A stretch of DNA of 64,000 bases from a virus (IMGVR_UViG_3300048583_000100:33428-97427), one strand, 5' to 3'. Positions 11,501 through 61,891 are shown, counted from the first letter of the stretch. The notes: generated by a model not told the origin, from the letters alone. A program made the numbers and translations.

Positions 11501-11899
11501 ATGACCATTCTTCAAGATTTGCTGACTCTTCGCGAAGCAGAAGACCTCAACCCAGACGTGCCAAAGGCAGTTAACGCTATCAAGCGCAAACTGAAGGAAC
11601 CGTTCGGTAGAGAGCAGGTTAAGATTACGCTGACTCCGTCAGGTAACAAGATTGTCATCCTCCTCGAATTCAACCGCACGCTGACTGAAAAGGAATTCGA
11701 CTACGCTGTCGATGACCTCAAGGACGCAATCGAAAAGGCCGACGAGTCTGGTCGATGGGAATTCAAGGACACTGGATCGTACTTCGCTGATCCAGCTGCT
11801 CTCATGCCCAAGCGTGGCGTGATGATGGATCAAGGTGCGTTGCTTTGCGATATCGAATACACCGTTACCGTCCCAAATACGATTCGCAAGAAGCGCTAA
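11501..11899 (+). CDS. Late protein, putative internal head protein
   Basis: SD GGAGGA; N-terminus MTILQDLLTLREA. Confidence 0.7.
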   Translation: MTILQDLLTLREAEDLNPDVPKAVNAIKRKLKEPFGREQVKITLTPSGNKIVILLEFNRTLTEKEFDYAVDDLKDAIEKADESGRWEFKDTGSYFADPAALMPKRGVMMDQGALLCDIEYTVTVPNTIRKKR

Positions 11900-11935
11900 C
11901 GCGCAGCTATAGTCCTTCAAACTTCGGCGCCCAAA

Positions 11936-12949
11936 ATGTTTACCTTCAAACAGTTCATCAGCGAGTCTACACTCCACGTGTTTGACATCGACGACACCCT
12001 ATTCAAGACGTCTGCTAAGGTAGTCGTTAAGAAGGGCGGCAAAATCGTTCGCTCGCTGTCTTCGTCTGAATACAACAAGGACAAGCTGAAGGACGGAGAA
12101 GTCTACGACTTCGATGAGTTCCGTTCTGCTAGGAAGTTCAAGGACGAGTCAGAGCCAATGCAGGACATGCTCGATACCGTCAATCGTATCCACAACAAGA
12201 TCAAGATGAACCTTACTCCTGGTTCCAAGATCATCATGAACACCGCTCGTAGCGATTTCGATGAGCGTGATACGTTCCTTGGTAAGTTCAGAGATCACAA
12301 AGTGGACATCGACGATATCCACGTTCATCGTGCTGGCAATGTCAAGGGCGATCAACCTACTGCAGCCAAGAAGCTCGTATTCATCCGTGGCTACTTGAAG
12401 TCTGGCAAGTACAGCAACGTCATGATGTACGATGACAGCGAAAAGAATCTAGACCATTTCCTCGGTCTTCGCGAAGAGTTCCCAGACGTAAAATTCCACG
12501 CCTACCTTGTCAAGCACACCGGTAAGCTAGTGCAGTACAACTCAGCTGAGAAGGTTACCGAGGATGATGCCGAGCTGAAAGAAAAGTATCAGCGTTGGAA
12601 GAAGCTCGTCAACATGCCATCGCCTACACTCCAGAAGTTCATTGACTCGGACACTGGCAAAGATGCCGGCCTGTCTAGACAGGAAGCTTCGTCTTTGGGG
12701 ATTAAGAGTGGGCGCGATTCAGCCCGTGCTATCCTAAGAATGCGCGCAAAGCCATTCTCCGAGTGGACAGCAGATGACATCAAGTGGATGAATCGCCAAA
12801 TCTCATTCGTAAGTCGAATGACTGGCAACCAAGGCCCGATGTTCCAGATGAAAGATGGAAAGAAGGTTCCTACTCGTAAGCTTACGAGTCTCTGGATTTG
12901 GGGTAACGTGCCAGCGGGTCATTCACCTGGCACGTACCGCATCTTTTAA
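11936..12949 (+). CDS. HAD-family phosphatase (RNA-repair/PNKP-like HAD) fused to a DUF3140-like domain; capsid-targeting-like N-terminus
   Basis: MFTFKQFISE; FDIDDTL, NTAR, K, YDDSEKNL HAD motifs; C-terminal LVNM...SGRDSARAIL...SLWIWG. Confidence 0.8.
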   Translation: MFTFKQFISESTLHVFDIDDTLFKTSAKVVVKKGGKIVRSLSSSEYNKDKLKDGEVYDFDEFRSARKFKDESEPMQDMLDTVNRIHNKIKMNLTPGSKIIMNTARSDFDERDTFLGKFRDHKVDIDDIHVHRAGNVKGDQPTAAKKLVFIRGYLKSGKYSNVMMYDDSEKNLDHFLGLREEFPDVKFHAYLVKHTGKLVQYNSAEKVTEDDAELKEKYQRWKKLVNMPSPTLQKFIDSDTGKDAGLSRQEASSLGIKSGRDSARAILRMRAKPFSEWTADDIKWMNRQISFVSRMTGNQGPMFQMKDGKKVPTRKLTSLWIWGNVPAGHSPGTYRIF

Positions 12950-13494
12950 CGCTCTCGATCCCGCGCGTCATACGGCGGGACTGCGTTCAACTTCGACTTG
13001 ATACTTTCCCAGCTGACTGGGGTGTATCCATGTGCGTCGACACCAACGTCATATCGACGATTGGTACCGTCATTGGCGATCTTCCCGTGAACATGGCCGT
13101 GAAGCATCATCGAACCGTGAAAGGCCTTCTCCCAGCTCAGCAGCGGGTAGTGGCACATGTTGACCAGATGCCCATCAAAGGTTTCGCGATGAAGGTCTGG
13201 CACCAAGCGATGGAACTTCCGCTGCATGGCTTCCGAGTATCGAATGCGCTTGTCATGGTTGCCGAGAAGCAGAATGATCTTGCCCTGAAGTCGGCGCAGA
13301 ATCTGAATTGCTCGCTGCTCGGGGCAGAAGAAGATGTCGCCAAGCACCCACACTTCGTCTCCGTCTTGAACGACAGAATTCCAGTTGGCGATCAGCGTCT
13401 CATCCATCTCTTCGGCATTTGCGAAGGGACGAGAGCAGTACTTGATGATGTTTTCGTGCCCGAAATGCGGGTCACTTGTAAAGAACCTGTTCAT
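12946..13494 (-). CDS. Calcineurin-like metallophosphoesterase
   Basis: FTSDPHFGH, LGD, GNHD, CHYP, LHGHVH, DVGVD. Confidence 0.92.
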   Translation of the reverse strand: MNRFFTSDPHFGHENIIKYCSRPFANAEEMDETLIANWNSVVQDGDEVWVLGDIFFCPEQRAIQILRRLQGKIILLLGNHDKRIRYSEAMQRKFHRLVPDLHRETFDGHLVNMCHYPLLSWEKAFHGSMMLHGHVHGKIANDGTNRRYDVGVDAHGYTPVSWESIKSKLNAVPPYDARDRER

Positions 13495-13662
13495 CAGCTA
13501 TTCCTGAACCACGCTCGGACGTTGCTGAACAGATTGTACTTGACGATGTCGTGCCAGGCAACTACGCCAATGCAAACGACGATCGAGAACAGCCCATACC
13601 CAACGATGGCGTACATTGCAGCTTCTTCATTACTCATCTGATTTCTCCTAATCACTTAGGTC

Positions 13663-13692
13663 ATTATACACCACGGTGAATCAGACGTACAC
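13663..13692 (-). promoter_or_regulatory. Early-type promoter GTGTAC-N18-TATAAT
   Basis: Consensus match. Confidence 0.7.
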
Positions 13693-13694
13693 TG

Positions 13695-14189
13695 TCAACC
13701 TGCGAGTCGCTCCATGTCTCCGAGTTCAAGAAGCTGCTTGATGTAGAGACAGGCGTCCATCACTGCGCCCTCACCACCCTTGTTAGGTGTCACGAAATTT
13801 GCAGCCTTGATAGCTTCAATTCGCGCATTCGCGGGTGCGATACCAATTGCGCAAGTCTTGATGCATGGCGCATCGTAGTAGCCGTCGCCCATGAAAATGG
13901 TTTCGCGTGGATTCATCTGATGAATGAATTCAAGTCTGTCTTCTTCGGGTATAAACGTCAGCTCATATCCCATGTCTGCACAAATTCTGCGATGTGTAAT
14001 CTCGTAGCCTCTCTTATCGGCAGAGATAAACTGAATTCGAAGACGATTGCGAAGCATCTTCAATCCATCTGCATCATGCGGGCCAAACACCTTCGCTAGC
14101 TTGCCAGCAGCAGTGTAAATGAACTGCCCGTTAGTCATGACACCATCGACATCAAGGATGAAGTTTTTCAGATCTGCGGTTCTAAACAT
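13695..14189 (-). CDS. KdsC-like HAD sugar-phosphate phosphatase
   Basis: ILDVDGVMTNG, DADGLKML, FMGDGYYD, GGEGAV; start at MFRTAD. Confidence 0.85.
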   Translation of the reverse strand: MFRTADLKNFILDVDGVMTNGQFIYTAAGKLAKVFGPHDADGLKMLRNRLRIQFISADKRGYEITHRRICADMGYELTFIPEEDRLEFIHQMNPRETIFMGDGYYDAPCIKTCAIGIAPANARIEAIKAANFVTPNKGGEGAVMDACLYIKQLLELGDMERLAG

Positions 14190-15699
14190 TGGTGTTGACC
14201 TTGTGGTTGAGTCGTTCGAGAGCCAGACAGAATAGTAGCTTATCGAGTGGAGCATTGTGGAGAGGAGCCATGTTCAGGAAAATCAGCGTGACCATATCGT
14301 CAATGATCGGGCTTGGGAGCATGTGCTTGAATTTTTCGCGGAAGGCAATGAACTCTGGACGGCTTTCGAATCCAAACGAGCACGAGTCTCCGTCTTCAGA
14401 CACCCAGAATTTGTGTTCGCGAATGTAATCGTAGTTGACTATCATGCCACCTACCAGCTTCGCAGCATCATAATAGAGATCGCCGACTTTGATCTGCCCA
14501 CCGAAATCCTGTCTCCAGTCGATGAGCGTAAACTTCTCACCATCGTAGATGACGTTGTCGAACTGAAGATCACCATGGAAGAACACCGAACGAGTCTTCA
14601 GATCGGTGTTGAGCATTGCATTCCAATCGATGTGATGCTGAATGCCATTGTCGATGTCGACTTTTAGCACTCGCCCGTTGATGATCTTTGGATTGAATGT
14701 CGGGTACTTGTCTCGGAAAACCTGTAGACGACGCATCGTCTTGTCGTAGTAGAATTTGCGGCACAGCTCAGGAGTAAGCGTCTTGCTCTCATCCATCTGC
14801 CATACTTCGAATGCCATCCACTCCAAGAATTTCGTAAAGGTTTCGGCAGTTAGCGACTTGTAGAGCACATCACCTGGCACAAAGTGATACGAGTACCATG
14901 GCCCACGGTGTTCAATGATCTTTGGAAAGAGATGCTCTCTGCCTTCGATTCGAGCAAGACGATTCATCGTGTTAGCTGGATTGCGGAACCACTTGATGAC
15001 TCGATTGTTGACGATGTAGAGGAACTCGTCTGACTTGCTGTTGTCAAATGGTGAAGTCTCCTTAGAAAACTTCTCATAGCGCTCGTAGGTGCCAAGATCA
15101 ACCCAAGGAAGCTCGATTGAATGTACCTCATTAGCAGTCCAACCGCTGGCGAGCTCGATACCGTTCAGACCGTTCCAAAAATGCTTTGTGTCCTTGATGT
15201 AGAAAACACCAGAGACAGCAATTCCAGAATCGAAATGCTGCTTGTCAACCACCGTGTCGATGCGCGTACCGTCTAGAGCTACGTTGCAGTACGCAGGAGA
15301 ATCCATTGGATCAATGCGAGCAGTCGCTACATAGTTCTTATCTTCGGGAATGTCATTGAGCCCCTCGTAGTATCCATCACAAGCGATCAGATAGAAGGGC
15401 CCGTCGATATGCGCACCTGCGGCGAGCAATGATTGGGCTGGACCAGCACCCGGCCCATCAAAGTTTTCGACGTACGAGTAAAGGAAATTCCGTTCTGGGT
15501 GGGCGAGCGATAGATAGTCGCGAACTTGGTCGTGCTTGTACCCCACAGCAACCACGAACTTCGTGTCTTGGGGAAATTGCTCGATGATGTGCGAAATGAT
15601 TGCCTTGCCTCGAATGGGAAGCAGCGTCTTGTTGATGACGGTACTGTACTTTCCCATTCGCGATCCCGTTCCTGCTGTGAGGAGGACCACTGTTTTCAT
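14182..15699 (-). CDS. NTP-transferase (sugar/choline-phosphate nucleotidyltransferase) fused to an APH/choline-kinase-like phosphotransferase
   Basis: LLTAGTGSRMG...KTLLPI, WVDLGT; C-terminal FHGDLQFDNV, LIDWR, GDLYYDAAK. Confidence 0.85.
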   Translation of the reverse strand: MKTVVLLTAGTGSRMGKYSTVINKTLLPIRGKAIISHIIEQFPQDTKFVVAVGYKHDQVRDYLSLAHPERNFLYSYVENFDGPGAGPAQSLLAAGAHIDGPFYLIACDGYYEGLNDIPEDKNYVATARIDPMDSPAYCNVALDGTRIDTVVDKQHFDSGIAVSGVFYIKDTKHFWNGLNGIELASGWTANEVHSIELPWVDLGTYERYEKFSKETSPFDNSKSDEFLYIVNNRVIKWFRNPANTMNRLARIEGREHLFPKIIEHRGPWYSYHFVPGDVLYKSLTAETFTKFLEWMAFEVWQMDESKTLTPELCRKFYYDKTMRRLQVFRDKYPTFNPKIINGRVLKVDIDNGIQHHIDWNAMLNTDLKTRSVFFHGDLQFDNVIYDGEKFTLIDWRQDFGGQIKVGDLYYDAAKLVGGMIVNYDYIREHKFWVSEDGDSCSFGFESRPEFIAFREKFKHMLPSPIIDDMVTLIFLNMAPLHNAPLDKLLFCLALERLNHKVNTNV

Positions 15700-22522: not shown

Positions 22523-22747
22523 TTACACCTCGTACTCGCGGAACTTCATCCACCAGAACTTGTTGGTGTTGAAGAAGTCGATGGCTTCATGGTGCTGATT
22601 CTTGATCTTGATCAGCATCGTGCCCTTCGTCAGGGAGAATCGACGAGCATTGGACGCATGTATCGCTGCGGACTGCAGCGCCTCGTCTAGCGACTGAAGA
22701 CGCTGAATAAATTTGGTCGAAGAGAGCCAGCGCTGAAAAATGTTCAT
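22523..22747 (-). CDS. Hypothetical protein
   Basis: Packed ORF. Confidence 0.5.
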   Translation of the reverse strand: MNIFQRWLSSTKFIQRLQSLDEALQSAAIHASNARRFSLTKGTMLIKIKNQHHEAIDFFNTNKFWWMKFREYEV

Positions 22748-22955
22748 GCTTTATCTCCGCGTACCCACTTCAGCATCTTGCTGCTGTACGGCTTGATGGC
22801 TCGCTCGGCCCATTCATCGCCCAGCAGAATGATCTCAGCGAAATTCTTGAGCAACCACAGAATGCCCGCAAAGATCAACATGAGTAGTGCGACGGGCAGC
22901 AAAACCCACCAACGCCAGTTAAGGATGGTAAGCTGAAGAATGGATTTTTGGGTGC

Positions 22956-23198
22956 TCATGCGAAGATTTCCTCTTGGGCCAGTACACATTGACCGCACTC
23001 GACGATCGAGTCGTCTTCCTCGAAAGTAAAGGCGAGGTGACCGGGCAGATGCGGATGACCGACGATGCTGTACGTGGTGTTGATTCGAAGACCAGACTTG
23101 AACGGCTTCGGAGCCTTGCCACCAGTGCGACGCTTGACCACTCGCTTTCCGAGCATGTCGATGAGGGTGTCTACGTCGTACTGTTGAAGAGTGTCCAT
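22956..23198 (-). CDS. Hypothetical protein
   Basis: KPFKSGLRINT motif, seen in conserved small phage proteins. Confidence 0.6.
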   Translation of the reverse strand: MDTLQQYDVDTLIDMLGKRVVKRRTGGKAPKPFKSGLRINTTYSIVGHPHLPGHLAFTFEEDDSIVECGQCVLAQEEIFA

Positions 23199-23783
23199 GT
23201 CCTGCCTCAGTCGTCGTTATCGTTGGACCAGCGAGACGGCTTCTGACGCTTGCGGTCAGTCTCTTCAACGGGTGGCGCGTGCTTTTCGCGGCGCTTGTCT
23301 CGCAGCTCTTTGTCTTTCGACTTCTTGCTGCGGAACTCGTTGTAGTCTTCGTCATCGAAATCGCGGAAGCGGGTGCCCATTTTCTTGTCCTTGGTGCGGG
23401 TTGGTGTTACTCGGAAATTTGAATCCAGCCCCACTCAGTTGCTTTGGGGTCTGGGTTGCAGTTGAAGTCCTTGAACATCTTACGGGCCGTAGCTCGGTCC
23501 AATCCTTGGACTTCACGCCGAGGTTCACTTTCGAACTCAACGTAGAACGTATACTTGGCGGTGTGCATAGGTGGTGATCGCCATCTGCTTGTTGTGGGCA
23601 CGAGCGTAGCCAGGCATTGCCTTCTCGACCTTCTTGAAGTACTTGCGGTCGAAAACGTAACGCTGACCGTGGAAGGTATTGAACACGAACTCAGCGATGA
23701 AGGGAACGCCGAGTTCCTTCAGAACGGCCGGGACGTCGTAGCGCTTGGGAAGAGAGAAGCCGAATTCGTTCATCATGAGATAT

Positions 23784-24318: not shown

Positions 24319-25341
24319 TTATAGCAGCTTGGCGATCTCGGCTGACTTAGCTCGTAGCATGTCCTGGGTCTCGGCTGCTTTCTGCTTGGCTCGGTCGGTC
24401 TGGGCCTTGTCAAATTTGCTGCTCTTGGCCAAGTCCTCATTCTTCTTGATGTACGTTTCGCGGACCTTGGAAAGGAAATCCTCTTGCGAAGAGATGTGCT
24501 TGAGCAGTCCCTTACTGTACATGTCGTTGAGTGCGAAGGATTCTCCAAGACCCTTGATTGCTGATGCGAGATCGGCAATCTTGATTTCGGATTTCGTAAT
24601 ACCCGGGTGCGCTGCTAGACCCTTGCTGATCTTGACCTTACCTTCTCCATCTCTTTCGTGGAAAGCTTTCAGGATATCAGTTGCGAAGGTGTCGATGCTT
24701 GTAGACAGGGTGCGAAGTTTGTCGGCCTTTAAGGTGCGGAAGCTCACCACTTCACCGCCCTTCTCTTTCATCTGTACACCCGAGTCGCCAATGCTGAGAT
24801 TGAGAACTTCTGCGAGTGATGAGTAAAGGAAGCCGATGAGTGCACCCTTGACACCGTGTTCAGGAGTCATGCGATGCGAAGTCCAATCTTCGAGGTCAGT
24901 GAATGACTTGACGAGATCGATCTGAACAGCCTGATCACCGACCTGGAATACAAGAGCCGCACCCTTGAAGGATGTGCCAGCAGCCAGATATGAAAGATCG
25001 TTGTCGTCTATGTACTCGTCAAGCTCTTCACGATAGAGACGCCAGTTGTCTGAGCCTTTCATTCCCTCAATACGAGGAACGATGAACATCACATCGATGT
25101 CACCGTACTCTTTGTCTGGGTTAGACTTGAGATCGCGTTCGATGTATGCAGAGGAACCGACTGGCTTACCAAATGCGACAGGCGCAAGGTTCTTCTTTGC
25201 AAGATGAGCATTGAAGTCCTTCTCGAATCTAGGAAGCAGTGCGAGTGCCTTCTTAGCAAGAGCCGGAGTCAGAATAACGTCTTGCGTAAGGGTGCTAGAC
25301 CAGCCACCCTCAGCTAGGAACTCTTTGAATGATCGCTTCAC
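24319..25341 (-). CDS. Pol-beta-superfamily nucleotidyltransferase with capsid-targeting-like N-terminus
   Basis: MKRSFKEFLAEGG; VGSS...YGDIDV...VQIDLV catalytic pattern. Confidence 0.75.
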   Translation of the reverse strand: MKRSFKEFLAEGGWSSTLTQDVILTPALAKKALALLPRFEKDFNAHLAKKNLAPVAFGKPVGSSAYIERDLKSNPDKEYGDIDVMFIVPRIEGMKGSDNWRLYREELDEYIDDNDLSYLAAGTSFKGAALVFQVGDQAVQIDLVKSFTDLEDWTSHRMTPEHGVKGALIGFLYSSLAEVLNLSIGDSGVQMKEKGGEVVSFRTLKADKLRTLSTSIDTFATDILKAFHERDGEGKVKISKGLAAHPGITKSEIKIADLASAIKGLGESFALNDMYSKGLLKHISSQEDFLSKVRETYIKKNEDLAKSSKFDKAQTDRAKQKAAETQDMLRAKSAEIAKLL

Positions 25342-26156
25342 GTTACATACCTAAAATTCGGAGAGCGAGAACCATTCCTGCCCGTACCTAAACTATTTAC
25401 GAGGTGCTTTACCGATTCGAAGATAGTGACACCGTCTACAGTGCAAGCCCTTTTGTTCTTTGACATATCCTTTGACTTGCGCATGTTCTGCTTTGCTTCT
25501 TCAGAATGCTTCTTACCAAGTCGGACCTGTCGAATTGATTCTTTGTGAGCCGTAGAAAATGTCGGTAAGACTTTCGACTTTCCTTTTGTGGCTTTTGAAA
25601 TATTGTGACGTGTTTCGGGAGTTCTGGTTTGTCCAGTGCCACCCTCAGAAATCTTCTTCTTGTGTTCTTCAGTTAGCACTTTACCCGTCAGCGCATTTCG
25701 AATTTTTTCACGAGCTTCAGGGGTATGCGTAGTCCAGGTTTTTGCTCTAGAAGCGGCTATCTTGTCGTACCACTCTTTTGTGCGAACATATTTCTTGGAC
25801 GCTGCTGAAAGCTTTGCACTTGTTTCTGCTTTTGTCGGTGGGCGATCATAGTAGCCTTCTCCACCGGGCCCACAATTCATGCAAGCGGGATCTTTTCTAA
25901 GCTCAACAGTAATGAGCTCTTTTTCTTTATCTGATGCTTCTTGTCGAGAAGAAAATTCGAATAGCACCTGAGATACATGCCTGTCTTTACCGTATTTTCT
26001 GATGGACTTTCTCAGTCGCATACCGCTGCCCAAATAACCATCATTCAAGTTATCAGTGCTGTGCATCCCGATATAAAAGGCACCTGTTTCAATGCAAACT
26101 GTCTTATAGACAATATGGTGCTTTCTATTTGACGCTCTAACGTACTTCTTTTCCAT
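25338..26156 (-). mobile_element. Free-standing GIY-YIG (Seg-like) homing endonuclease with NUMOD3-like repeats
   Basis: IVYKTVCIETGAFYIGMHST...YLGSG; HTPEAREKI, LTEEHKKKIS, HSEEAKQNM; AT-richer than flanks; own TATAAATA at 26183..26190. Confidence 0.88.
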
Positions 26157-26208
26157 TTGATACTCTCAAGGCTAGCTGAGAATATTTATAGAAATCGGCA
26201 AAATCAGG

Positions 26209-27696
26209 TCATGCATACAACTCCACGAGTTTTTCCCAATTTGGAGCTCCTGATGCAGCAAGGTTAAGAGCACGTACGAGCTTACGAAGGGATACGTCAC
26301 CCTTACGCTTAGAGGTCTTGACGACCTTCAGAACATTCTCACGCTCATCCTTCGAAAGGGTCATGTCGCCTTCGAGACGGATGTCATGCAGGATTCTTTC
26401 CATGTGCTCGAACATTTCGTCGTCGGTTGGATCGACGTTGATGACGAATGCACGGGTACGAAGAGCTCCGTCTGGGTCAAGCTTCGAAAGCGGAAGGTTC
26501 GAGATGAAGATGATGCGACCCTTAAAGTCGAAGTACTTAGGAGCCATGGTGGCATCGTCTTCGTACTGCTCTGGGTCTTCACTCTCTGGGTCGAAGATGA
26601 ACGAGGAGCGCTTGTTCCAAACCATTTTACGGCTCTTCTTAGTGTCGGTGGCAGCCTTGATGAGGTTGCGAGCGTCGACGTCAGCAAGAGCTCCGTCCGA
26701 GTCATCGAACAGAATGATGTCGTTGCGGTGGTGATAGAGCAGCGTGTAGACACCTGCAGCAGAAGCCGAACCGGTGTTCTTGAAGTAGCCATCGCCGTCA
26801 GTAAGACCATTAGCCTCGAGCACACGCTCAACAGTCTGAGTCTTACCAGTACCACCCTTACCAGCTACGAAGAGAGCGTTAAACGATCCCTTGATGACAG
26901 CTTGGACAAGACCCGCAAGGTGATCTAGGGTCTCGAGATATGGAGTGCGCTCGGCACCAGCCTTATCCTTACCTTCGATCTCCTCTTCCTGAGAAGACTT
27001 GAAGTAGGTTTCCTTTGTGCCACCAGCAGTCACCTCGACAACGCCAGCCTTAGAAAGGATAGAGTCCTTGAGTGACTCGATCTTTGCATCAGGGTCCAGC
27101 GTGACTCGCTTACCGTTGATGCCGAACTGTTCCTTGAACTTGTCGTAGATGGTATCGAAGACACCGGCATGGACGATGTGGTAACGACCGATGAAGTCAG
27201 AACGAGTCATCGACTTGCCGCTCTTCAGCTGGCCGAGGAAGTCAACGAGTGCAGTTTCAGCTGTAAAGTCGTCGCGCTTTGCTTCAGTGACGATCGACTC
27301 ATTCATGGCCTCTGTAGCAGAGACTGGGAATGCGAACTCCTTACCAACAGATGGGTTCTCAAGCTTCGAAACTACGAGTGGTAGAATCTGTACGAGGGAG
27401 ACGCCCTTAGAACGAATGGAGTAGTTTGGATCGTGCGACTTACCGGTGAAAATGTCGATCGATGCAAGCGAACCTGGTTTTCCGACTGCACCTTCGCTCG
27501 CCCAATTGAATCGAACGCAGCGAGTTGAACCCGACTGAACGTAGCGAACACCGTAGCCGCTACCTTCAGAGTTCTTGAAGTGTTCGATGCCTGGGATTCG
27601 GATGAACTTGACACCCAACTTCTTCTCAATGTACGAGATCATGGTTGGAAGAGCTAGACCGGTGGCCTTAGCTTCGTGCAGCTGACTTAGTTTCAT
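26209..27696 (-). CDS. Late protein: N-terminal domain plus AAA+ ATPase; MKLSQLHEA N-terminus
   Basis: GKGGTGKT, ILFDDSD, IFISNL, ALRTR; ATAAATA at 27732..27738. Confidence 0.85.
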   Translation of the reverse strand: MKLSQLHEAKATGLALPTMISYIEKKLGVKFIRIPGIEHFKNSEGSGYGVRYVQSGSTRCVRFNWASEGAVGKPGSLASIDIFTGKSHDPNYSIRSKGVSLVQILPLVVSKLENPSVGKEFAFPVSATEAMNESIVTEAKRDDFTAETALVDFLGQLKSGKSMTRSDFIGRYHIVHAGVFDTIYDKFKEQFGINGKRVTLDPDAKIESLKDSILSKAGVVEVTAGGTKETYFKSSQEEEIEGKDKAGAERTPYLETLDHLAGLVQAVIKGSFNALFVAGKGGTGKTQTVERVLEANGLTDGDGYFKNTGSASAAGVYTLLYHHRNDIILFDDSDGALADVDARNLIKAATDTKKSRKMVWNKRSSFIFDPESEDPEQYEDDATMAPKYFDFKGRIIFISNLPLSKLDPDGALRTRAFVINVDPTDDEMFEHMERILHDIRLEGDMTLSKDERENVLKVVKTSKRKGDVSLRKLVRALNLAASGAPNWEKLVELYA

Positions 27697-27751
27697 TTGG
27701 GAGCCTAGTTAAAGTGGTGAATACTCGAGTCTATTTATCGTTCCACCAACA

Positions 27752-39822: not shown

Positions 39823-40932
39823 TCAGACGTGTAGCATCTCTTTTGCAGTGTTGATCAGCATCTTAGGATCGCTTGAGCCCATGAGCATCAGGTAAGGACC
39901 TTCGAACCATATTTCAGCATTTTCGAATCCTGAGTCTGATTTGGAGGGAACGTTCTTCGCGACATCTGCATAAGAGCCAATCTGGATTCCCATATTCTTT
40001 GGGTCGAGCATGTCATGAAGAGCATCTGATAGCTTAGGATGCTTGCGAACGATCTGATCCATACGGATGATCAGCGTTTTCAGATAGACGTGACTACCCA
40101 TTTCAATAACGCGCTTAAACAATGCTGCGTGTTTCCCGCCCAGAGATTCTTTGAATGCGGCATAAAGCGTGTCAACATTCCGTAGAGATTCAGCATCCCA
40201 CGTAAGATCTGTTTTCTGTCTATCGTAATCTGCTGAAAAGATGTCTGGGGAAATGTCCAAAGCTTTAACGAAGTCATCTTTCTTGGTCAGCTTCATGAAA
40301 GGAATATCGTAGATGTCGCTGACGATCTGCGATTTAGAAGGCTTTTTGGCGCTGTCATCTTGCATCAACAACTCATCGGTAAACGTTCCGTCATGCGAGA
40401 AGTGGCGAGCATGTTTGCTGAGCTTTTTGAGTAGCAAGATGAGGTCTTTCACAGCACCGCCAGCGTCGTAATACGACATCTTGGTATCCGGCACGTGCAG
40501 ATAGTTGAAGTCTTTTGTCGTCCACGCAAAGCGCTTAACCGAATTCAAAGGTAGAACCATACCCAGCGTACCAAATTCCTTGGCACCACCTGCACTCAAG
40601 GATGTAAAGGTCGACATGGAACGATCTGGAATACCTTCTTTCTTCCAACGAGGATCGGTCTTCGACATGCGAAGCAACATCGAGTTGCCAGTTAGAGACT
40701 TGCGCTCTGTAGTTCTGCCGCCGAAATACAGCAACTTGAAACCATCGCCAAGGCGGTAAACCGCAGTCGCGTGGTTCTCAGCGCTATTGACACCACGCCA
40801 TAGAACACCAGGGTTCTTGATGGCTTCGCTAGTAGCGGCTATGACACGCTTGGCCTCAGACAAATCTTGACTTTCATCGCCATCATCCGCGTAACCGTCG
40901 TCGTAAGATTCAAATAGTTCGCGAAGTTTCAT
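39823..40932 (-). CDS. Late protein (MKLRELFES), possible ADP-ribosyltransferase-fold enzyme
   Basis: VLWRGV, STFTSLS...AKEFG and AEIWF resemble the R-S-E ART motif. Confidence 0.5.
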   Translation of the reverse strand: MKLRELFESYDDGYADDGDESQDLSEAKRVIAATSEAIKNPGVLWRGVNSAENHATAVYRLGDGFKLLYFGGRTTERKSLTGNSMLLRMSKTDPRWKKEGIPDRSMSTFTSLSAGGAKEFGTLGMVLPLNSVKRFAWTTKDFNYLHVPDTKMSYYDAGGAVKDLILLLKKLSKHARHFSHDGTFTDELLMQDDSAKKPSKSQIVSDIYDIPFMKLTKKDDFVKALDISPDIFSADYDRQKTDLTWDAESLRNVDTLYAAFKESLGGKHAALFKRVIEMGSHVYLKTLIIRMDQIVRKHPKLSDALHDMLDPKNMGIQIGSYADVAKNVPSKSDSGFENAEIWFEGPYLMLMGSSDPKMLINTAKEMLHV

Positions 40933-41126
40933 TTGGCGTACTCATTCTTGTGGTAGTCGAATTCACGATTAGCGGTGTCGTAGAGACGAAGGTCTACGTA
41001 ATCGTCAGACGCTTTGTCAAATCCGCCTATGAAGCGAATGCATTCGTCCTTGCTACCGTGGAACACTTTTTTCTTGTTCTTCTGAGTGGCGACATACCAA
41101 CGGCCGCTGACTTCTGACAGCTTCAT
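40929..41126 (-). CDS. Small late protein (MKLSEV)
   Basis: Coupled to both neighbours. Confidence 0.6.
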   Translation of the reverse strand: MKLSEVSGRWYVATQKNKKKVFHGSKDECIRFIGGFDKASDDYVDLRLYDTANREFDYHKNEYAK

Positions 41127-42008
41127 TTAGAGCTCCTCAGGAACCGGAAGCTTGAGTCGTTCAAGCTCAGACTTGCTAGCCTTGATGACTTCGGCTGCAT
41201 TGGGAAGCTTCTTAACAAGAGCAATGACACCTTCAGCAGTCATGACGTCTGCGGGCTTAGCACCCTTACCGAAGATGTACTTGACGATCTCATTTGGATC
41301 ATTCGTAGCTTCAAGCTCCTTCGAGAACTTGATTGACTTGCCCATCTTCTTGAGGATGGCTTCGAGCTCTTCAGGAGTTACGGTGTCTACAGACTTGTTG
41401 AGCTTGCCAGTCTTCTCATTGAATTTGGCAGCCTTGAAGAGACGCTTCATGCCAGAATCCATGGTGATGGATTTGGAAGCACGAGCATAAGGCTTTCCAT
41501 TCTCATCACGGAGAACGAAGTCCTTGTCCTTCTCTTGCTTGTGAGCCAGTGCCGTGAACATAATGATGTTGCGAACTGCACCGGGATACTTGGAGCCAGC
41601 TCCCTGAGCAGAGTGGTACATAAAGCGAGCCCAGTCCTTGTCGTTGACGAACATCAGGTCGACTTGAACCTTCTTGCCGTTTACTGGGACTGCGTAAGAG
41701 CCAACCTTGGTACCTGCGTTGTAGCCACCCTCACCATTGGTTGCCTTCAGCATCTTGGCGTCGATGTCTTTGACATCAGAATCTTCCAAGGAGAATGCAA
41801 TATCGATGTCACCGCTGTCCTTCTTCTTTCCAAGAAGAGTAAGAGCCGTAGAGCCGAGGAGGTCCGCTTTCAGAGTTTCTACTGAGACACCAGTAGCCTT
41901 TGACACGAATTCGAGCGCAGCCTTGACATCTGCTGTGGTCGCGCGATCTGTTCCGTACTTAGAAGTAGCTCCGCCACCTTCAGCGAGGAACTGTTTGAAC
42001 GTAATCAT
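41127..42008 (-). CDS. Pol-beta-superfamily nucleotidyltransferase with capsid-targeting-like N-terminus
   Basis: MITFKQFLAEGG; LGST...SGDIDI...VQVDLMF. Confidence 0.78.
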   Translation of the reverse strand: MITFKQFLAEGGGATSKYGTDRATTADVKAALEFVSKATGVSVETLKADLLGSTALTLLGKKKDSGDIDIAFSLEDSDVKDIDAKMLKATNGEGGYNAGTKVGSYAVPVNGKKVQVDLMFVNDKDWARFMYHSAQGAGSKYPGAVRNIIMFTALAHKQEKDKDFVLRDENGKPYARASKSITMDSGMKRLFKAAKFNEKTGKLNKSVDTVTPEELEAILKKMGKSIKFSKELEATNDPNEIVKYIFGKGAKPADVMTAEGVIALVKKLPNAAEVIKASKSELERLKLPVPEEL

Positions 42009-42037: not shown

Positions 42038-42071
42038 TATTTATCCCCCAATGACCATTAGGCGATAAATA
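42038..42071. promoter_or_regulatory. Divergent pair of late-type ATAAATA elements
   Basis: TATTTAT at 42038..42044 and ATAAATA at 42065..42071, between divergent genes. Confidence 0.65.
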
Positions 42072-54231: not shown

Positions 54232-55860
54232 TCAGAACTGCTGAATCAGCTGAGGAGCTGCCGAGTCAAAGCCGACGATGTCGAGCATACCAGGGTCCTT
54301 CGGGTCGGCGATCGTGAAGCTAGTCGTCGAAGTACCGCAGACGATCAGCTTCGCATCGCGGTTGTACTGCTTGCGGTAGCGCGCGAGCGCTTCTACCGGC
54401 TGCATACGACCCGCGTAGGTCTCGTTGTCCGTGATGACGATGAACTTGTCAACAGCAGACATGTTCTTCTCGATGGCCGTGAGCATTGGCAGCGAGCAGT
54501 CAGTCGAGCCCCAGCTGAAGTTGCGAATCACGTTGAGCACGTTGTCGAGACGCATTGCTGGCGTGATCTTGAGCTCGCTCATCTTCGAGTTGAAACCACC
54601 AACCCAAGAGTTCGACTCACGCTTCACGACTGCCATTGCGAGAACACCGGCAACTTCTGCAGCGGTGAGGTTAGGAGCACCGATGGCGCGTGCACCGAAC
54701 ATCGAGCCCGAGCAGTCAACGCCGATGAAGTGGCCCTGACCAGTGCTTTCGATGTACTGGAACGAATCATAGAACGCATCGTTCAGCGCATCGAGGACCG
54801 CCTGTACAGGCTGCCAGGTGAGAGTACCGCGATCACCATGGCCCTGGCGGTACTGGTTGAAAGCGTTCAAGATGGTGATCGGGTGAACTCGACCGTTCTT
54901 GATTGCCTCTGCATCAGTCAGCTTGGCGATGACAGTCTTCAGATCGCTCGAGAGCGGCTTGATGACGCCAATGTTGGTGAGCTGACCCAGCTTACGGATC
55001 AGCGCAGTCATGCCCATGTTCTGGACCAGTGCGCCCATTACATCAGCGTCACGGTGCAGTTCAGTTGGCAGCATTTCCCAGCTGATATCGCGGTAGTCTG
55101 CGATCACGCGGAGAGCGTTCTTCTTGTTCTGTGGCTCACGCTTCAGCGACTCGACAGCCGTGTACAGGCCTGGCAGAGCAACATTGGCTTCAGTGAAGGT
55201 CTCCGCACCCTTGACGGTGTAGCGGAACATGTTCGACTGGACGTCAGACTTCGGCTTCACGTGTGCGAGGCGGAGGACGTCGCGGTGCGACCAACCATCA
55301 CGAGACTGGTACTTGAGCAGCTGGACGGCGAGCTTGTCTTCGCCACGCTTGGTGTACCATGCAGCAACACCGCGCTTCGCAGCAGCGTTCCACTTGCCAA
55401 GCTCGTCAAGTGCAGAGACGAACTGGAAGAGATGCGTACCGATACGAGCCACACGAGGCAGAGCCTCGTAAGCAGCAGCGACAGTTGCTTCGTTGCCATG
55501 GATGGCGCAAAGAGCCAGCGCGAACACAGCTGGGTCGTTCTTTGGCGCGCGACCTTCGGTTGAGAACTCGACGATGCGATTCACGACACGGATGCCGTCT
55601 TCGTGGATGCACTTGATGACGTTCTTACCGGCATCCTTCGTCAGCTTCTGGGCAGAAGCGTAGTACGACGGCTTGTCGGAACCGAGGATGAGGAAGCGGT
55701 CGAGGTAGCCCCAGTTGTCTAGGACGAACGTGAAACCACCGGCATAGTTCTTGGCCATTTCGGTCTCACGACCAGCAATTGGCGAAGTCTGGCGGGTCTG
55801 CGTGGTAGCAGGGTTCGTCGACAGCGTCGAGGCGTAGAAGTTCTTGAGGTTCTTTGACAT
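54232..55860 (-). CDS. rsr: Ro60/Rsr TROVE + vWA domain RNA-binding protein
   Basis: NYAGGFTF, RFLILGS, RIGTHLFQF, KYQSRDGWSHRDVLRLAHVKP, MTALIRKLG, RVHP, DCSGSM (MIDAS), TDCSLPM, TDNET, GFDS. Confidence 0.96.
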   Translation of the reverse strand: MSKNLKNFYASTLSTNPATTQTRQTSPIAGRETEMAKNYAGGFTFVLDNWGYLDRFLILGSDKPSYYASAQKLTKDAGKNVIKCIHEDGIRVVNRIVEFSTEGRAPKNDPAVFALALCAIHGNEATVAAAYEALPRVARIGTHLFQFVSALDELGKWNAAAKRGVAAWYTKRGEDKLAVQLLKYQSRDGWSHRDVLRLAHVKPKSDVQSNMFRYTVKGAETFTEANVALPGLYTAVESLKREPQNKKNALRVIADYRDISWEMLPTELHRDADVMGALVQNMGMTALIRKLGQLTNIGVIKPLSSDLKTVIAKLTDAEAIKNGRVHPITILNAFNQYRQGHGDRGTLTWQPVQAVLDALNDAFYDSFQYIESTGQGHFIGVDCSGSMFGARAIGAPNLTAAEVAGVLAMAVVKRESNSWVGGFNSKMSELKITPAMRLDNVLNVIRNFSWGSTDCSLPMLTAIEKNMSAVDKFIVITDNETYAGRMQPVEALARYRKQYNRDAKLIVCGTSTTSFTIADPKDPGMLDIVGFDSAAPQLIQQF

Positions 55861-56346: not shown

Positions 56347-56365
56347 GTTATTCAGCATGTAGGTA

Positions 56366-58070: not shown

Positions 58071-58604
58071 TTACACGGCTCTCGTGGACTTACTGCCCAT
58101 CTTAGCTTTTGCCTTGTCCCACTTCTTCAAAACTTCCTCTAGCGAGGTCGACCAAATTCCTACGAGTGAACCAACCGGATCACCGGCCTTCATGCGAGGC
58201 TTTGGTGAGTTGAGTCGTGTCTGTGCTTCTTGACCCCAGCCACCATTGGTTGAATAACGGATCTGACCATTTGCGAAAATCTTGTACTGCGCGTTGAACT
58301 TCTTGCCGCTTGGATACACGCGATTTGTTTCAAACGAGAGTGTGCCCTTCTTTTCAGAAGCCGGCAGCTCCACATACTTCATGCCATCAGCGCCAGTAGC
58401 CTTCTTGAAAATTGCCGTGTCCTTGAACTTCTTCAAAGCTTCAGCAATATCGTCCTTGGTAATGTCCATCGTATCAAGCCAATCGAGAACAGATCCAAGA
58501 AGCTGCTTCTTGTCATCGTCGTAGCGTGGCGAGTAGTAAGCGCCAGCGCTTAGGTTGCGCTTCGGCGAGCTCTGTACTGCTTCAAAGAGGTCAGATACTT
58601 TCAT
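58071..58604 (-). CDS. Late protein (MKVSDLFEA), putative internal head protein
   Basis: ATAAATA at 58639..58645 upstream. Confidence 0.7.
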   Translation of the reverse strand: MKVSDLFEAVQSSPKRNLSAGAYYSPRYDDDKKQLLGSVLDWLDTMDITKDDIAEALKKFKDTAIFKKATGADGMKYVELPASEKKGTLSFETNRVYPSGKKFNAQYKIFANGQIRYSTNGGWGQEAQTRLNSPKPRMKAGDPVGSLVGIWSTSLEEVLKKWDKAKAKMGSKSTRAV

Positions 58605-58674
58605 GATTGCATTTCCAGGAGGTGGTTGTTCATGCTCTTATTTATCCAGATGTCACGATGGTGACACCGAAAGA

Positions 58675-58750
<76 letters not shown>

Positions 58751-58759
58751 ACATTGTGT

Positions 58760-59215
58760 TTATTTATCACCAGCAAGAAGCTTGGCAGCCTTCCTGACGA
58801 TTGAAGCCTGTGACTTTCTGCCCTGAGCAATGAACTGCTTCTCGGTTAGCCAGTGAGTCGACTTGGTTTCGTAGTGGGGTTTCTTGAAGTCGTCTTTGTC
58901 CTTGACCTCGCCCATGTAAATCGTCATCTTGTAAGACTCTTTCTTACCACGGACCTTGCTAGAGAAGACTACTTGAATGGTTTCCTTGATGAGATTGCCA
59001 CGCTTAAGACCGAGTTCCTCTCGACCTTCACGAAGCGCAGCTTCATATACGCCCTCACCAGTGTCAATTCCGCCCTTAGCTAGCTGGGGTTCTGCACCAC
59101 CATACTGCGCTTTAGAAGGCGTCATGAAGTAAAAGAGCGGCTCACCATTCTCATAGACATAGGGGATGAATCCGGCACGCTCTCTCACGTCAGGTAGAAT
59201 CTCGTCTAGCTTCAT
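58760..59215 (-). CDS. Nudix hydrolase (MKLDEIL N-terminus)
   Basis: KGGIDTGEGVYEAALREGREELGL Nudix box. Confidence 0.92.
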   Translation of the reverse strand: MKLDEILPDVRERAGFIPYVYENGEPLFYFMTPSKAQYGGAEPQLAKGGIDTGEGVYEAALREGREELGLKRGNLIKETIQVVFSSKVRGKKESYKMTIYMGEVKDKDDFKKPHYETKSTHWLTEKQFIAQGRKSQASIVRKAAKLLAGDK

Positions 59216-59220
59216 GAACC

Positions 59221-59667
59221 TTACTTTACAGCCTTAGGCTTCTTGATCTGTAGGTCCATGTTTACGAAGTTGTTACCCTGCATACCCTGCTCGGAGTAAC
59301 CGACGCTCTTCACGTACTGTGTGAGCTTCTTCTTGTCAAGGAGTTCCTTGAAGGACTTGAGGAAGTTCGAGTCAGTGTAGATGAGGTCATGCTTCGATGC
59401 CTTGTAGCCGTCAAGCACGATGTCGATGACGCCGTCAGCGGTCTTGCTACCATCATTTTCTTCGTCGAAGTAGTGAGGACGAATTGCCTTGATGACGAAG
59501 GTCATCTCTTCATCGTTCTTACCCCATAGACCACGGCTCTTCTTGCCATAGGCCTTGACCTTTGAGCCGACTAGAGCTGCGCTCATAGCCTTCAGAATTT
59601 CCTTGGTCGTTGTAGGAACTGGAGCAGCCTCGTTTACAACCTGCTTGATTAGTTCGAATGTCTTCAT
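59221..59667 (-). CDS. Late protein (MKTFELIKQVVNEA), putative internal head protein
   Basis: ATAAATA at 59708..59714; IYTD..F and YSEQGMQG motifs. Confidence 0.7.
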   Translation of the reverse strand: MKTFELIKQVVNEAAPVPTTTKEILKAMSAALVGSKVKAYGKKSRGLWGKNDEEMTFVIKAIRPHYFDEENDGSKTADGVIDIVLDGYKASKHDLIYTDSNFLKSFKELLDKKKLTQYVKSVGYSEQGMQGNNFVNMDLQIKKPKAVK

Positions 59668-59719
59668 GTTGATTCCTTAGAATGGATGGAGCACTTGGTT
59701 CGCAGGGTATTTATTGCTC

Positions 59720-60391
59720 TTACCACATTAGATCGAAGAACCCGCCGAGAACTTTGTCACACTTTACAGTGCAGCCGCTCGCATGATCCTTTACGACATT
59801 GTCTTGGAAGCGGTACGTTCTCATCTTGTCACCTCTCATACCTGAGCCGACCTGCTGCTTACGCGTAGAAGACAGCTCTGCTCCAGCGATCATAGACTGT
59901 CGACGGTTGACTCTTTCGAGGATTGCTGTCTTAGCTTCGTCAAGGGAATTCTCTCGACTACGACATGATGCTGTGGCTGTGGTTGAGGTCGGGATATGGA
60001 TGATGCGACAGGAGTTCTGGGTCTTGTTACGATGCTGCCCACCAGGTCCAGTTCCGGAGTACCACTCTATGCGGAAGTCGCGATCGTTAAATTCGATTCG
60101 CTTTACTTCCTTTGGGTCTATGATTGCGACAGTGACGGTAGACGAATGAACACGTCCACGTTTTTCATTCGGTGGGATTCGCTGAACGCGATGGCCACCG
60201 GACTCTTTCTGAAGCTCTGATAGATCGTCGCCCGTTACTTCAATTGAAAGTTCACCGGGCCTATCGTCTATCAGGCGGTGAGTTCAACCGAAGCGAACGA
60301 ACATTTTGGTGTAAGCCTTCGCCAGATCACGTGCGAACAGCTTAGCATCTTCTCCGCCTTCGGCGGCTCTTAGTTCGATAATGCGCTTCAT
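59720..60391 (-). CDS. Class I peptide chain release factor homologue lacking domain 1, with in-frame TGA at codon 36 (not in the ORF track)
   Basis: Manual translation: MKRIIELRAAEGGEDAKLFARDLAKAYTKMFVRFG*THRL...KESGGHRVQRIPPNEKRGRVHSSTVTVA...SGTGPGGQHRNKT...GSGMRGDKMRTYRF...MW; SD AAGGAG; 224 codons, same frame on both sides of the TGA. Confidence 0.9.
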
Positions 60392-60402
60392 TGAATTACT
60401 CC

Positions 60403-60606
60403 TTAGATTGGATCACACTCTCCGCGTTCGATCATTATTGCTCGAACTGCGTCATTTACTTCTTGCTTCTCTTCTTCGCTAAGCTCCCACCAAAGGGTGT
60501 CTAGCTTATCTAGAATTTCATCTTCTACGCTATCGTCGGCATTGCCATCTCGCGCAGCCAGAAGATACCGAGTTTCTTCCATGTACTTTTCGACTTTCGT
60601 TGTCAT
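60403..60606 (-). CDS. Small acidic hypothetical protein
   Basis: Coupled to def. Confidence 0.6.
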   Translation of the reverse strand: MTTKVEKYMEETRYLLAARDGNADDSVEDEILDKLDTLWWELSEEEKQEVNDAVRAIMIERGECDPI

Positions 60607-61091
60607 GCTACATTCCTTTCTTCTGGGTCGGCATACTTATCGAAGGTGATGCCATTGAGATGGTCGAGTTCGTGCTGGAAGCAAATAGCGTCAATGCCAT
60701 CCAGATCAAGAGTGAACTCCTCAAAGTTCTCGTCGACGGCCTGGACTTGAATGCTGTTTGGACGAGCAACAGTCATTGCGACACCAGGAAAACTGAGACA
60801 CCCTTCCTTGAAGGGTTCGCGCTTTCGACTGACGGATAGAATTTCTGGATTGATGAACACTCTACGACCAACACTCTTGGGGTATCCAGTTTTGCTGGTG
60901 TCCATCACGAAGATGCGGGCGGCACAGTCCACCTGAATAGCAGCAAGCCCGATCGCCCCGTGATAGTACATGGTTTCAAACATGTCAGGTACGAAATGAT
61001 TTATCAGGAAGTTGCCAGCTTCGTCGTCGCGTACAGCAATGCTATGACAGTGAAGTCTCAGGTCTGGACTTTTGAGAAGCGGCAGAATCAT
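60603..61091 (-). CDS. def: Peptide deformylase
   Basis: AIGLAAIQV, EGCLS, QHELDHLNG. Confidence 0.96.
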   Translation of the reverse strand: MILPLLKSPDLRLHCHSIAVRDDEAGNFLINHFVPDMFETMYYHGAIGLAAIQVDCAARIFVMDTSKTGYPKSVGRRVFINPEILSVSRKREPFKEGCLSFPGVAMTVARPNSIQVQAVDENFEEFTLDLDGIDAICFQHELDHLNGITFDKYADPEERNVA

Positions 61092-61107
61092 GGGTACGCT
61101 CTAGAAT

Positions 61108-61181
61108 TGGTCTCGCTGGTGGGATTCGAACCCTACAAACTCAACCTTCGGAGGGTCGAGACCGATCCATCGGCAGCGAGA
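61108..61181 (-). tRNA. Atypical tRNA-Arg(CCG)
   Basis: Acceptor CTCGCTG/CAGCGAG + A-CCA; anticodon loop CTCCGAA; T-loop TTCGAAT; D-arm reduced. Confidence 0.65.
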
Positions 61182-61217
61182 TATTGGTGGGTCGCAATCT
61201 ATTTAAGCGACCGTATG

Positions 61218-61457
61218 TCAGTGGGTAATCAGCCCCAGCATCTCTGCTAGATGACTGAAACCTGGGACCTTAGTCCAGAGAAAATGTTCAAGCGGGAAGA
61301 GCAGAGTCTGCGCTGCCCAGAAGGACGGCATCTTCACGAAGCTCTTACAGTGGTGATAGCACTTGACTAGAAAACCCCGCTCGTCTGCATGAAAATGTGG
61401 AGGGCAGTTGTGGTGATCGTCAAGATTGATATGAGGGTGTTCGTGGTCATGCGCCAT
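61218..61457 (-). CDS. His-rich small protein
   Basis: Probable start MAHDHEHPH. Confidence 0.5.
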   Translation of the reverse strand: MAHDHEHPHINLDDHHNCPPHFHADERGFLVKCYHHCKSFVKMPSFWAAQTLLFPLEHFLWTKVPGFSHLAEMLGLITH

Positions 61458-61492
61458 GTTTTCATTCTCTAAAGTAGGGTGGAACAAACGGG

Positions 61493-61891
61493 TTACTTCT
61501 TTGCGTTTAGAATTTCCTCAATGGCGGATGCACTGCCACGAATGTAAATCTCAGCCTTAGGCTTTCTGTCTCTAAAGCTTGAGCTGACGGAAACTTCAAC
61601 TCCAGATGGGTGCTTGAATTTTGCACCGTAAGTATCGCTAGAGAAGTCTCCGCGAGACGAGCCACCATCGGCTCTCATGTCAGCCTTATCGAACCCCAAT
61701 GTTCTGAGGTATTCGTTAGCGCCATGATCTTTTGCGGTATGATTGAGATTAGAAGAATACGAAAGACTTGAGCCAGTGCTCGACGTGTTCTTTACAGTCG
61801 GCTTTGCGTAACCGCAATGCTTGGCTATTTCAGTAGCCAGCGTAAGTGCGGGGTCCTTGCTGACAGCTTCGAGCAGGTCATTGAGTTTCAT
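61493..61891 (-). CDS. Late protein (MKLNDLLEA), putative internal head protein
   Basis: ATAAATA at 61914..61920. Confidence 0.7.
   Translation of the reverse strand: MKLNDLLEAVSKDPALTLATEIAKHCGYAKPTVKNTSSTGSSLSYSSNLNHTAKDHGANEYLRTLGFDKADMRADGGSSRGDFSSDTYGAKFKHPSGVEVSVSSSFRDRKPKAEIYIRGSASAIEEILNAKK

Follow-up and report, generated by a model that had tools for sequence, protein, structure and literature searches.

Why should dispersed late-type genes of one phage, whose products show no mutual similarity by BLASTP beyond their first residues, begin with nearly the same short peptide? The question is raised by a 64-kb stretch of viral DNA (IMGVR_UViG_3300048583_000100:33428-97427; hereafter the window), which is the final part of a 97,427-bp linear record in IMG/VR that is estimated to be ~27% complete, has ~50% G+C and carries seven tRNA genes. 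A preliminary description of the window pointed to 11 such N-termini, and took them for T4-like capsid-targeting leaders on a set of enzymes that are packaged and injected with the DNA. Our analysis makes it probable that a T4-type system of capsid targeting and protease processing serves about ten late proteins of this phage, and our confidence is higher for the three genes with class A leaders, defined below, than for the whole set.

Two leader classes at the N-termini of dispersed genes

All 11 N-termini are present at the starts given for them, with GTG as the start codon of the gene at 25341. Two classes can be distinguished. Class A, M-x-[TS]-F-K-x-F-[LI]-x-E, is found at three genes (starts at 42008, 25341 and 11936), and class B, M-K-[LV]-x-[EDQ]-L-x-E, has four full matches (27696, 40932, 58604 and 61891), with a shorter form at eight genes. 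The other four N-termini (41126, 59215, 59667 and 11501) are looser relatives; thus, the "family of ~11" described earlier stands for seven strong members and is weak in its motif for four. The strong members are:

41127..42008, minus strand: class A leader MITFKQFLAE then GG; 293-aa predicted nucleotidyltransferase of the Pol-beta superfamily, with family-X-like palm and thumb
24319..25341, minus strand: class A leader MKRSFKEFLAE then GGW (GTG start); 340-aa predicted paralogous nucleotidyltransferase
11936..12949, plus strand: class A leader MFTFKQFISE then S; 337-aa HAD-type phosphatase (DIDDT) with DUF3140 (Pfam DUF3140, E 4e-9)
26209..27696, minus strand: class B leader MKLSQLHE then A; 495-aa protein with an N-terminal domain and an NrdC.10-type P-loop ATPase
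39823..40932, minus strand: class B leader MKLRELFE then S; 369-aa orphan
58071..58604, minus strand: class B leader MKVSDLFE then A; 177-aa protein with no function assigned
61493..61891, minus strand: class B leader MKLNDLLE then A; 132-aa protein, ATAAATA 22 nt upstream

The weak members are:

40929..41126, minus strand: 65-aa open reading frame (ORF) starting MKLSE then V, translationally coupled between the genes at 42008 and 40932
58760..59215, minus strand: 151-aa Nudix hydrolase, starting MKLDEILPDVRE (first residues MKLDEIL) then RAG
59221..59667, minus strand: 148-aa protein, starting MKTFELIKQVVNE then AAP, ATAAATA 40 nt upstream
11501..11899, plus strand: 132-aa protein, starting MTILQDLLTLRE then A, first gene of the unit that includes the HAD gene

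Upstream of the window, the record holds four more leader-bearing genes.

Enrichment was counted over the 141 ORFs of the 97-kb record, with internal positions of those same proteins as background. The short form of class B, M-K-[LIV]-x-[EDQN]-[LIV], occurs at 8 of 141 N-termini against 0.09 expected (P 5e-14), and the full form ending in x-E at four against 0.006 expected. Class A, written as M-x(1,2)-[TS]-F-[KR]-x-F-[LI]-x-E, occurs at three N-termini and at none of 24,719 internal positions (P 3e-8). A loose rule, [LIVF]-x-E-[AGS] within the first 17 residues, returned 16 of the 141 ORFs, 2.8-fold over a 4% background, and was rejected as a rule of membership. In all seven strong members the leader ends in (L/I)-x-E, the site of the T4 protease gp21. 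Phenylalanines at positions 4 and 7 (F4 and F7) are present in the class A genes; this pattern of targeting positions is not found in class B.

Conserved leader residues and their counterparts in T4

The pattern M-x-[TS]-F-K-x-F-L-x-E-G-G is kept in 120 homologs of the protein encoded at 41127-42008. When 30 homologs, down to 49% identity, are aligned, E10 is invariant and M1, F4, K5, F7, L8, G11 and G12 are conserved at ≥90%, with positions 2, 3, 6 and 9 free to vary. Synonymous codons vary at the conserved leader residues (L8 is CTC, CTA, TTG or CTT), and hence selection acts on the peptide. These observations bear on the suggestion that the common N-termini reflect how the mRNAs of highly expressed late genes are built or translated (an AAA second codon and an unstructured start), the peptide itself having no role. 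MK starts are common and favour initiation, and all members lie in late-type units; however, besides the synonymous variation, conservation extends to residues 8-12, the same junction is found inside long fusion proteins at a distance from start codons (see below), and structural late genes, such as those for fibres, lack the motif. We consider this explanation highly improbable.

N-termini of a similar kind are found in T4 (NC_000866): MKTYQEFIAE in ipII and ipIII, MKTFKEFTS.. in ipI, MELITELFDE in Alt, MNEPQLLIE in gp21, MLKEQLIAE in gp22 and MAKINELLRE in gp24. Propeptides of the T4 internal-protein system have 10-19 residues. The first ten residues of IPIII are enough for packaging, targeting depending mainly on residues 4 and 7 and processing on residues 8 and 10 (PMC9026906). 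gp21 cleaves after Glu in I/L-x-E (PMC12991175), and six residues of Alt are removed at ITE-6 (PMC5694885). The conserved positions of class A are those mapped in T4 to targeting (4 and 7) and processing (8 and 10), which argues for reading class A as a T4-type leader. As in IPI, IPII and IPIII, a leader of about ten residues with aromatics at 4 and 7, L/I at 8 and E at 10 precedes unrelated bodies, and dispersed late-type genes, some by a tRNA cluster like T4 ipI, occur in a lineage with a gp21-type protease. The T4 internal proteins are small, basic and non-enzymatic, whereas the putative cargo here spans 132-495 aa and includes predicted enzymes.

Class B (MKLRELFE, MKVSDLFE) resembles the N-termini of Alt, gp24 and gp22. 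Alt is a large enzyme with a short propeptide (MELITE/LFDE) that is cut by gp21, and it is ejected with the DNA; sequence similarity to T4 Alt was not found. Giant phages of the phiKZ type (SPN3US, 201phi2-1) also have many head-internal proteins, enzymes among them, with N-terminal propeptides and a T4-related protease, but their propeptides are 80-130 residues long with an A/S/G-x-E site (PMC5694885), whereas those described here have 8-13 residues and L/I/V-x-E as in T4. Reviews have proposed that T4-like phages load varied proteins by means of a capsid-targeting sequence (PMC9026906, PMC3012670).

A fixed junction in the nucleotidyltransferase families

The proposal that two nucleotidyltransferases are among the leader-bearing genes was borne out by the G-S, D-x-D and third Asp motifs in both proteins (LLGS...GDIDIAF...VQVDLMF at 41127-42008; VGSS...GDIDVMF...VQIDLV at 24319-25341), whose G, S and three D residues do not vary in the alignments, and by a fold match of the former. 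In an AlphaFold2 model of the 41127-42008 protein (pLDDT 89), residues 1-11 have low confidence and the body behind them is well folded. Foldseek matched this model to Pol lambda/beta (E 1e-4), and VIA matched it to TdT, Pol beta and the PolX of African swine fever virus at Z 8.6-9.0, over 156-166 residues with a root-mean-square deviation of 3.2-4.3, a match that covers only palm and thumb, whereas canonical family X polymerases also have fingers and 8-kDa domains; a Z near 9 only slightly exceeds what models with no true match usually reach at best. Among viral models, a protein of phage Atu_ph07 comes closest (TM score 0.76-0.80); this homolog is leaderless, starting MGGRAF where the window protein continues past MITFKQFLAE. 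BLASTP similarity between the two class A nucleotidyltransferases is confined to the leader, and hhalign aligns them at 97% probability (E 5e-11); on this profile comparison they are distant paralogs.

The family of the 24319-25341 protein gives the clearest view of the leader as a separate module. An exhaustive HMMER search returned 198 family representatives, and the start of the body (GG, usually GGW) was placed in the best 150. Within these 150, 26 begin with M directly before GG and have no leader; 35 have leaders of 6-12 residues, of class B (MKLSELFE, MRAKEFIIE) or class A (MISFKEFLVE) type; 27 have leaders of 13-30 residues; and 37 have 30-1240 residues of other sequence ahead of the GG. 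The ortholog in a related contig (G009) begins MISFKQFITE. In the 99 members with sequence before GG, position -1 is E in 97 and position -3 is L, I or V in 95, while 17 different residues occur at -2. Judged from this alignment, the junction, [LIV]-x-E then GG, obeys the T4 gp21 rule at one fixed site. Since leaders of both classes stand before the GG of one family, either class can take the place of the other on a single body.

A conserved cut site could also be accounted for if the leaders were propeptides for zymogen-like inactivity or late turnover, removed by a protease from proteins that act, unpackaged, in the producing cell. The [LIV]-x-E then GG junction speaks for cutting rather than targeting; the 26 leaderless M-GG forms would yield the same mature end after removal of Met, suggesting that a free GG end matters; and the T-even homologs of NrdC.10 are leaderless. 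On the other hand, it is established T4 biology that gp21-type proteases act within the prohead, which requires their substrates to be inside it; the conserved F4 and F7 correspond to T4 positions for targeting, not for processing (PMC9026906); and leader-bearing proteins have been reported from virions of the cultured phage RsoM2USA (PMC8504454). We regard processing without packaging as unlikely, and favour leaders that both target and are cut.

The source phage and its late-type promoters

When 11 kb of the window were compared with cultured phages by megablast, no match was returned; the phage has no close cultured relative at the DNA level. Contigs with homologs of the record's proteins reach 368 kb, and three related IMG/VR records (G006, G007 and G008; 343-368 kb, with terminal repeats and rated 100% complete) each encode Peptidase_S77, the T4-type prohead protease (E 1e-24 to 3e-26), along with a major capsid protein of the gp23 type (E about 1e-94) and a homolog of gp55, T4's late sigma factor; Peptidase_S77 and the gp23-type capsid protein are also present in G009. 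The protease of G007 shares 32% identity with T4 gp21 and retains the catalytic motifs GELNHP and GVSSRG, together with QILIE. Among cultured phages, Ralstonia phage RsoM2USA (62% identity) and Xanthomonas phage XacN1 come closest by capsid protein. These comparisons identify the source of the fragment, as far as homology can, as a T4-superfamily jumbo phage of ~350 kb in the RsoM2USA/XacN1 group. Given that the record is ~27% complete and that the complete relatives have S77, gp23 and gp55, the phage's own head genes are placed outside the fragment.

The preliminary description had each leader gene or its operon follow an ATAAATA element rather than the early promoter, and we found this for every leader-bearing unit:

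11472-11478, plus strand: ATAAATA, unit of the gene at 11501 and the HAD gene at 11936
42038-42044, minus strand: ATAAATA, late-promoter-like element of the unit 42008 > 41126 > 40932
26183-26189, 27732-27738, 58639-58645, 59708-59714 and 61914-61920, minus strand: ATAAATA, leading the other leader-gene units

The record has 22 copies of ATAAATA, whereas no other 7-mer made up of five A and two T exceeds nine; 17 of the 22 are placed 10-75 nt upstream of an ORF that begins behind a ribosome-binding site. It is similarly over-represented in G007 (57 against at most 14 for other 7-mers of the same composition), where it precedes the genes for the prohead protease, a sheath-like protein and fibres. 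The 12 early-type (sigma-70-like) promoters, TTTAC-N17-18-TA[TC]AAT, are upstream of other genes, such as those for topoisomerase subunits, and none leads a gene with a leader. One leader-bearing unit also includes a homing endonuclease gene:

25338..26156, minus strand: GIY-YIG/NUMOD3 homing endonuclease (Pfam NUMOD3, E 1e-8), not a cargo candidate

This gene lies between the ATAAATA at 26183-26189 and the GTG of the class A gene at 25341, and overlaps that start by four bases.

Spread of the leaders and virion proteins of a cultured relative

An IMG/VR scan at the DNA level for M-x-[TS]-F-K-Q-F-[LF]-x-E returned at least 120 stretches. At least 129 ORFs of 41-615 residues start with the class A pattern, and they form at least 55 clusters without detectable similarity outside the leader. 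Peptidase_S77 is encoded by all five of the largest contigs among the class A matches listed, a sample chosen by size alone and with no matched control set. The N-termini around the protease and capsid genes of G007 are of the other type: MKQQILIE (the protease itself), MELLQELL, MKLEQLRKL, MKIKELVE and MQLLRELH. Class B is thus the common N-terminus of the head-core module in that genome, where starts of the forms MK[LI]xEL and MELLQELL abound.

The G007 N-termini bear on whether class B is a head signal at all. A true capsid signal could be confined to the three class A genes, with MKLxxLxE representing unrelated N-terminal helices that have another role on unpackaged proteins. Likeness to the leader defined by experiment in IPIII is limited to class A, class B having no direct experimental precedent for targeting, and in some relatives of the 495-aa protein N replaces the Glu. 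Yet both classes substitute for each other on homologous bodies at the same E then GG junction, class B N-termini lie on proteins between the protease and capsid genes of G007, and class B has a likeness to the propeptides that T4 puts on gp21, gp22, gp24 and Alt, the last cut at ITE-6 (PMC5694885), besides being enriched at P 5e-14. A signal limited to class A therefore seems improbable to us, and we treat both classes as candidate head leaders.

RsoM2USA carries exact class A genes. ORF89 (28.56 kDa) begins MKTFKQFLSE, ORF132 (76.62 kDa) begins MKTFKQFLNTLME, and ORF438 has ..MLTFKQYAQPILTE then G; the G007 ortholog of ORF438 is ATAAATA-led and starts MTQLLRTIILAE then G. ORF89, ORF132 and ORF438 are among the ten most abundant virion bands of RsoM2USA, identified with LC-MS/MS by Ahmad et al. 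(PMC8504454). In the same genome (MG752970, 64905-67654; L249), ORF90-ORF87 form a tandem array with the leaders MSFKTFLE, MKTFKQFLSE, MKLHEISE and MKLSEAS..LIE, and this array adjoins ORF86, which encodes a 96-kDa virion protein. XacN1 had no exact class A DNA-pattern match, variant leaders not being looked for. The strings TFKQFL, SFKQFL, TFKEFL and TFKQFI were not found in the literature searched.

Other leader-bearing genes

The HAD phosphatase, the ATPase and the Nudix hydrolase of the preliminary description were all recovered. In the HAD protein (11936-12949), motif I (D-x-D-x-T), here VFDIDDTLF, lies directly behind the leader, and phrog_415 (polynucleotide-kinase type) matches at E 1.3e-7; no Pfam HAD family scored above its cut-off. 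The G007 ortholog starts with MKLHEV, not with class A, and in G010 the DUF3140 half stands apart as an ORF headed by a leader of its own, MLLKELFEE. At the position in G007 that matches 11501-11899, the first gene of the same unit, lies a gene, matched by place and not by homology, that starts MKVLELLE then Q; its relative in RsoM2USA, ORF385, starts MQTFKQFLSE, a swap between class B and class A.

Its Walker A (GKGGTGKT) and Walker B (ILFDD) motifs mark the 495-aa protein (26209-27696) as a P-loop ATPase, of the type of T4 NrdC.10. The leader pattern M-K-L-x-[DEQ]-L-[FYH]-E-[AS] is kept in most of 120 homologs; a subgroup has L-A-N-A in place of L-F-E-A at the leader end, with loss of the Glu of the presumed cut site. 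T-even NrdC.10 homologs align to residues 218-493 only, and are without the first ~217 residues, leader included. In the G009 ortholog (G009:C1, about 22650-23706; L079) an intein-like insert seems to lie inside the Walker A loop, ending ...SHN/TGKTQTV, and homologs of 585-655 aa may carry the same insert.

The Nudix hydrolase matches PF00293 (E 1.4e-9; 38.5 bits against a cut-off of 21.1) and has the box G-GIDTG-E-GVYEAAL-RE-G-R-EE-L-G-L, for which the consensus is G-x5-E-x7-R-E-U-x-E-E-x-G-U. Its orthologs retain [ILV]-x-E then [RK]AG (MKLLEVAKITE then RAG; MKLLEIAMPLE then KAG); BLASTP against T4 NudE gave weak local matches only. Orthologs of the 177-aa protein begin MKVSELLLE then R (G007) and MKIYELLE then A (G006), and the G006 ortholog of the 148-aa protein retains ..VVALNE then DAPP. 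For the 369-aa protein no homolog of similar length was found, its Atlas matches being clusters of viral hypothetical proteins only; the coupled 65-aa ORF has no ortholog in four relatives; and tblastn of a 131-aa protein starting MKLNEIK gave no match in cultured phages. Pfam and PHROGs left most of the cargo without a name, and sequence searches of the PDB returned nothing usable.

The ADP-ribosyltransferase (ART)-like cargo of the preliminary description could not be confirmed for any gene of the window. The gene at 39823-40932 has no family hit and an Atlas TM score of 0.23 to DRAT; we dropped the ART reading of this 369-aa class B protein, which has no similar-length homolog and has viral hypothetical proteins as Atlas neighbours. 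A better candidate is encoded 1.4 kb upstream of the window (L117:10306-11982, minus strand), a 559-aa protein with the leader MQLIRLLQE then AS. YRG, S-W-TT and E-x-E are invariant in three orthologs (ARTs have an R-S-E catalytic triad) and weak ART rows appear in the Atlas; its AlphaFold2 model, built on three sequences only, has pLDDT under 50 in the putative catalytic region, too low for a structure search. BLASTP against T4 Alt was not significant and tblastn against cultured phages gave no match. This protein may be a counterpart of Alt, the packaged ADP-ribosyltransferase of T4.

Two further genes of the window lie outside the leader set. A full-length Ro60-type protein is encoded at 54232-55860 (minus strand), with TROVE and Ro60 vWA domains (Pfam E 2e-53 and 2e-32), and a peptide deformylase (Pfam E 5e-43) at 60603-61091 (minus strand), amid tRNA genes and leader-bearing genes.

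Discussion

We propose that leader-bearing proteins would be made late, from ATAAATA promoters read by a gp55-type sigma factor; that an N-terminal propeptide of 8-13 residues would dock each protein on the scaffolding core of the prohead; that a gp21-type (Peptidase S77) prohead protease would cleave behind the Glu of [L/I/V]-x-E; and that the mature protein would remain in the head beside the DNA, probably to be ejected into the next host. Two interchangeable leaders would serve this route, class A of the type of T4 internal proteins and class B of the type of the gp21, gp22, gp24 and Alt propeptides. Packaging, cleavage and ejection in this phage are thus assigned by analogy with T4. The likely cargo, as predicted from sequence, comprises two PolX-like nucleotidyltransferases, a PNK-type phosphatase, a Nudix hydrolase and a P-loop ATPase; early in infection, these proteins may have nucleic acids or nucleotides as their targets.

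The claim of T4-type capsid-targeting leaders on late genes accordingly holds up on the comparative side, by the likeness to T4, the conserved positions, the invariant junction, the S77, gp23 and gp55 genes of relatives and the RsoM2USA virions, and fails to find its counterpart within the fragment, which has no protease or capsid gene. Several further points weigh against it. Protease, capsid and gp55 genes were not found in the 97-kb, ~27% complete record, so that the head genes are taken from relatives, with 54-75% identity between the proteins in common. Among the 11 members, four look weak by their sequence. MK(L) starts are frequent in bacteria, and a loose [LIV]-x-E near the N-terminus, with a background of 4-9%, gives false positives such as the topoisomerase at 5758-7743. 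A thymidylate-synthase-family gene (window 45-1019, minus strand; Pfam E 1e-101) also follows an ATAAATA (1037-1043), and hence the element also serves genes other than those of the virion. In T-even phages, the counterpart by alignment of the ATPase domain in the 495-aa cargo is a leaderless NrdC.10-type protein, which is not known to be a virion component. No cargo protein of the window has an ortholog in a cultured phage that has been tested for virion location. For RsoM2USA, the listed masses of ORF438 and ORF257 disagree with the annotated ORFs, the band assignments are only "most likely", and N-termini were outside the scope of that study (PMC8504454).

The principle is known from T4; what is new is that the putative cargo includes enzymes, that two types of leader can replace each other, and that fusion proteins have the same invariant junction. 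More tentatively, though we take it to be a real possibility, environmental T4-related phages, this jumbo lineage among them, may use two interchangeable short leaders as a plug-in head address for a large, fast-changing set of enzymes (PolX-like nucleotidyltransferases, phosphatases, Nudix hydrolases and ATPases) and protease-jointed polyproteins, a modular injected arsenal far beyond the three internal proteins and Alt of T4. The nucleotidyltransferases would then be a new class of injected nucleic-acid-modifying proteins; processing would give them a constant GG N-terminus, and they would gain activity only through the cut.

If leaders of this kind do direct proteins to the head, a ten-residue motif would forecast the capsid-borne, first-entering proteins of uncultured T4-like phages. 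In public viral contigs the motif marks more than fifty protein families with no relation to one another, several of them enzymes, and the invariant [LIV]-x-E then GG junction predicts the mature N-terminus sharply. The principle known from T4 would be extended, with no new mechanism added, and the PolX-like nucleotidyltransferases, the PNK-type phosphatase and the NrdC.10-type ATPase would be candidates for early host take-over or counter-defence.

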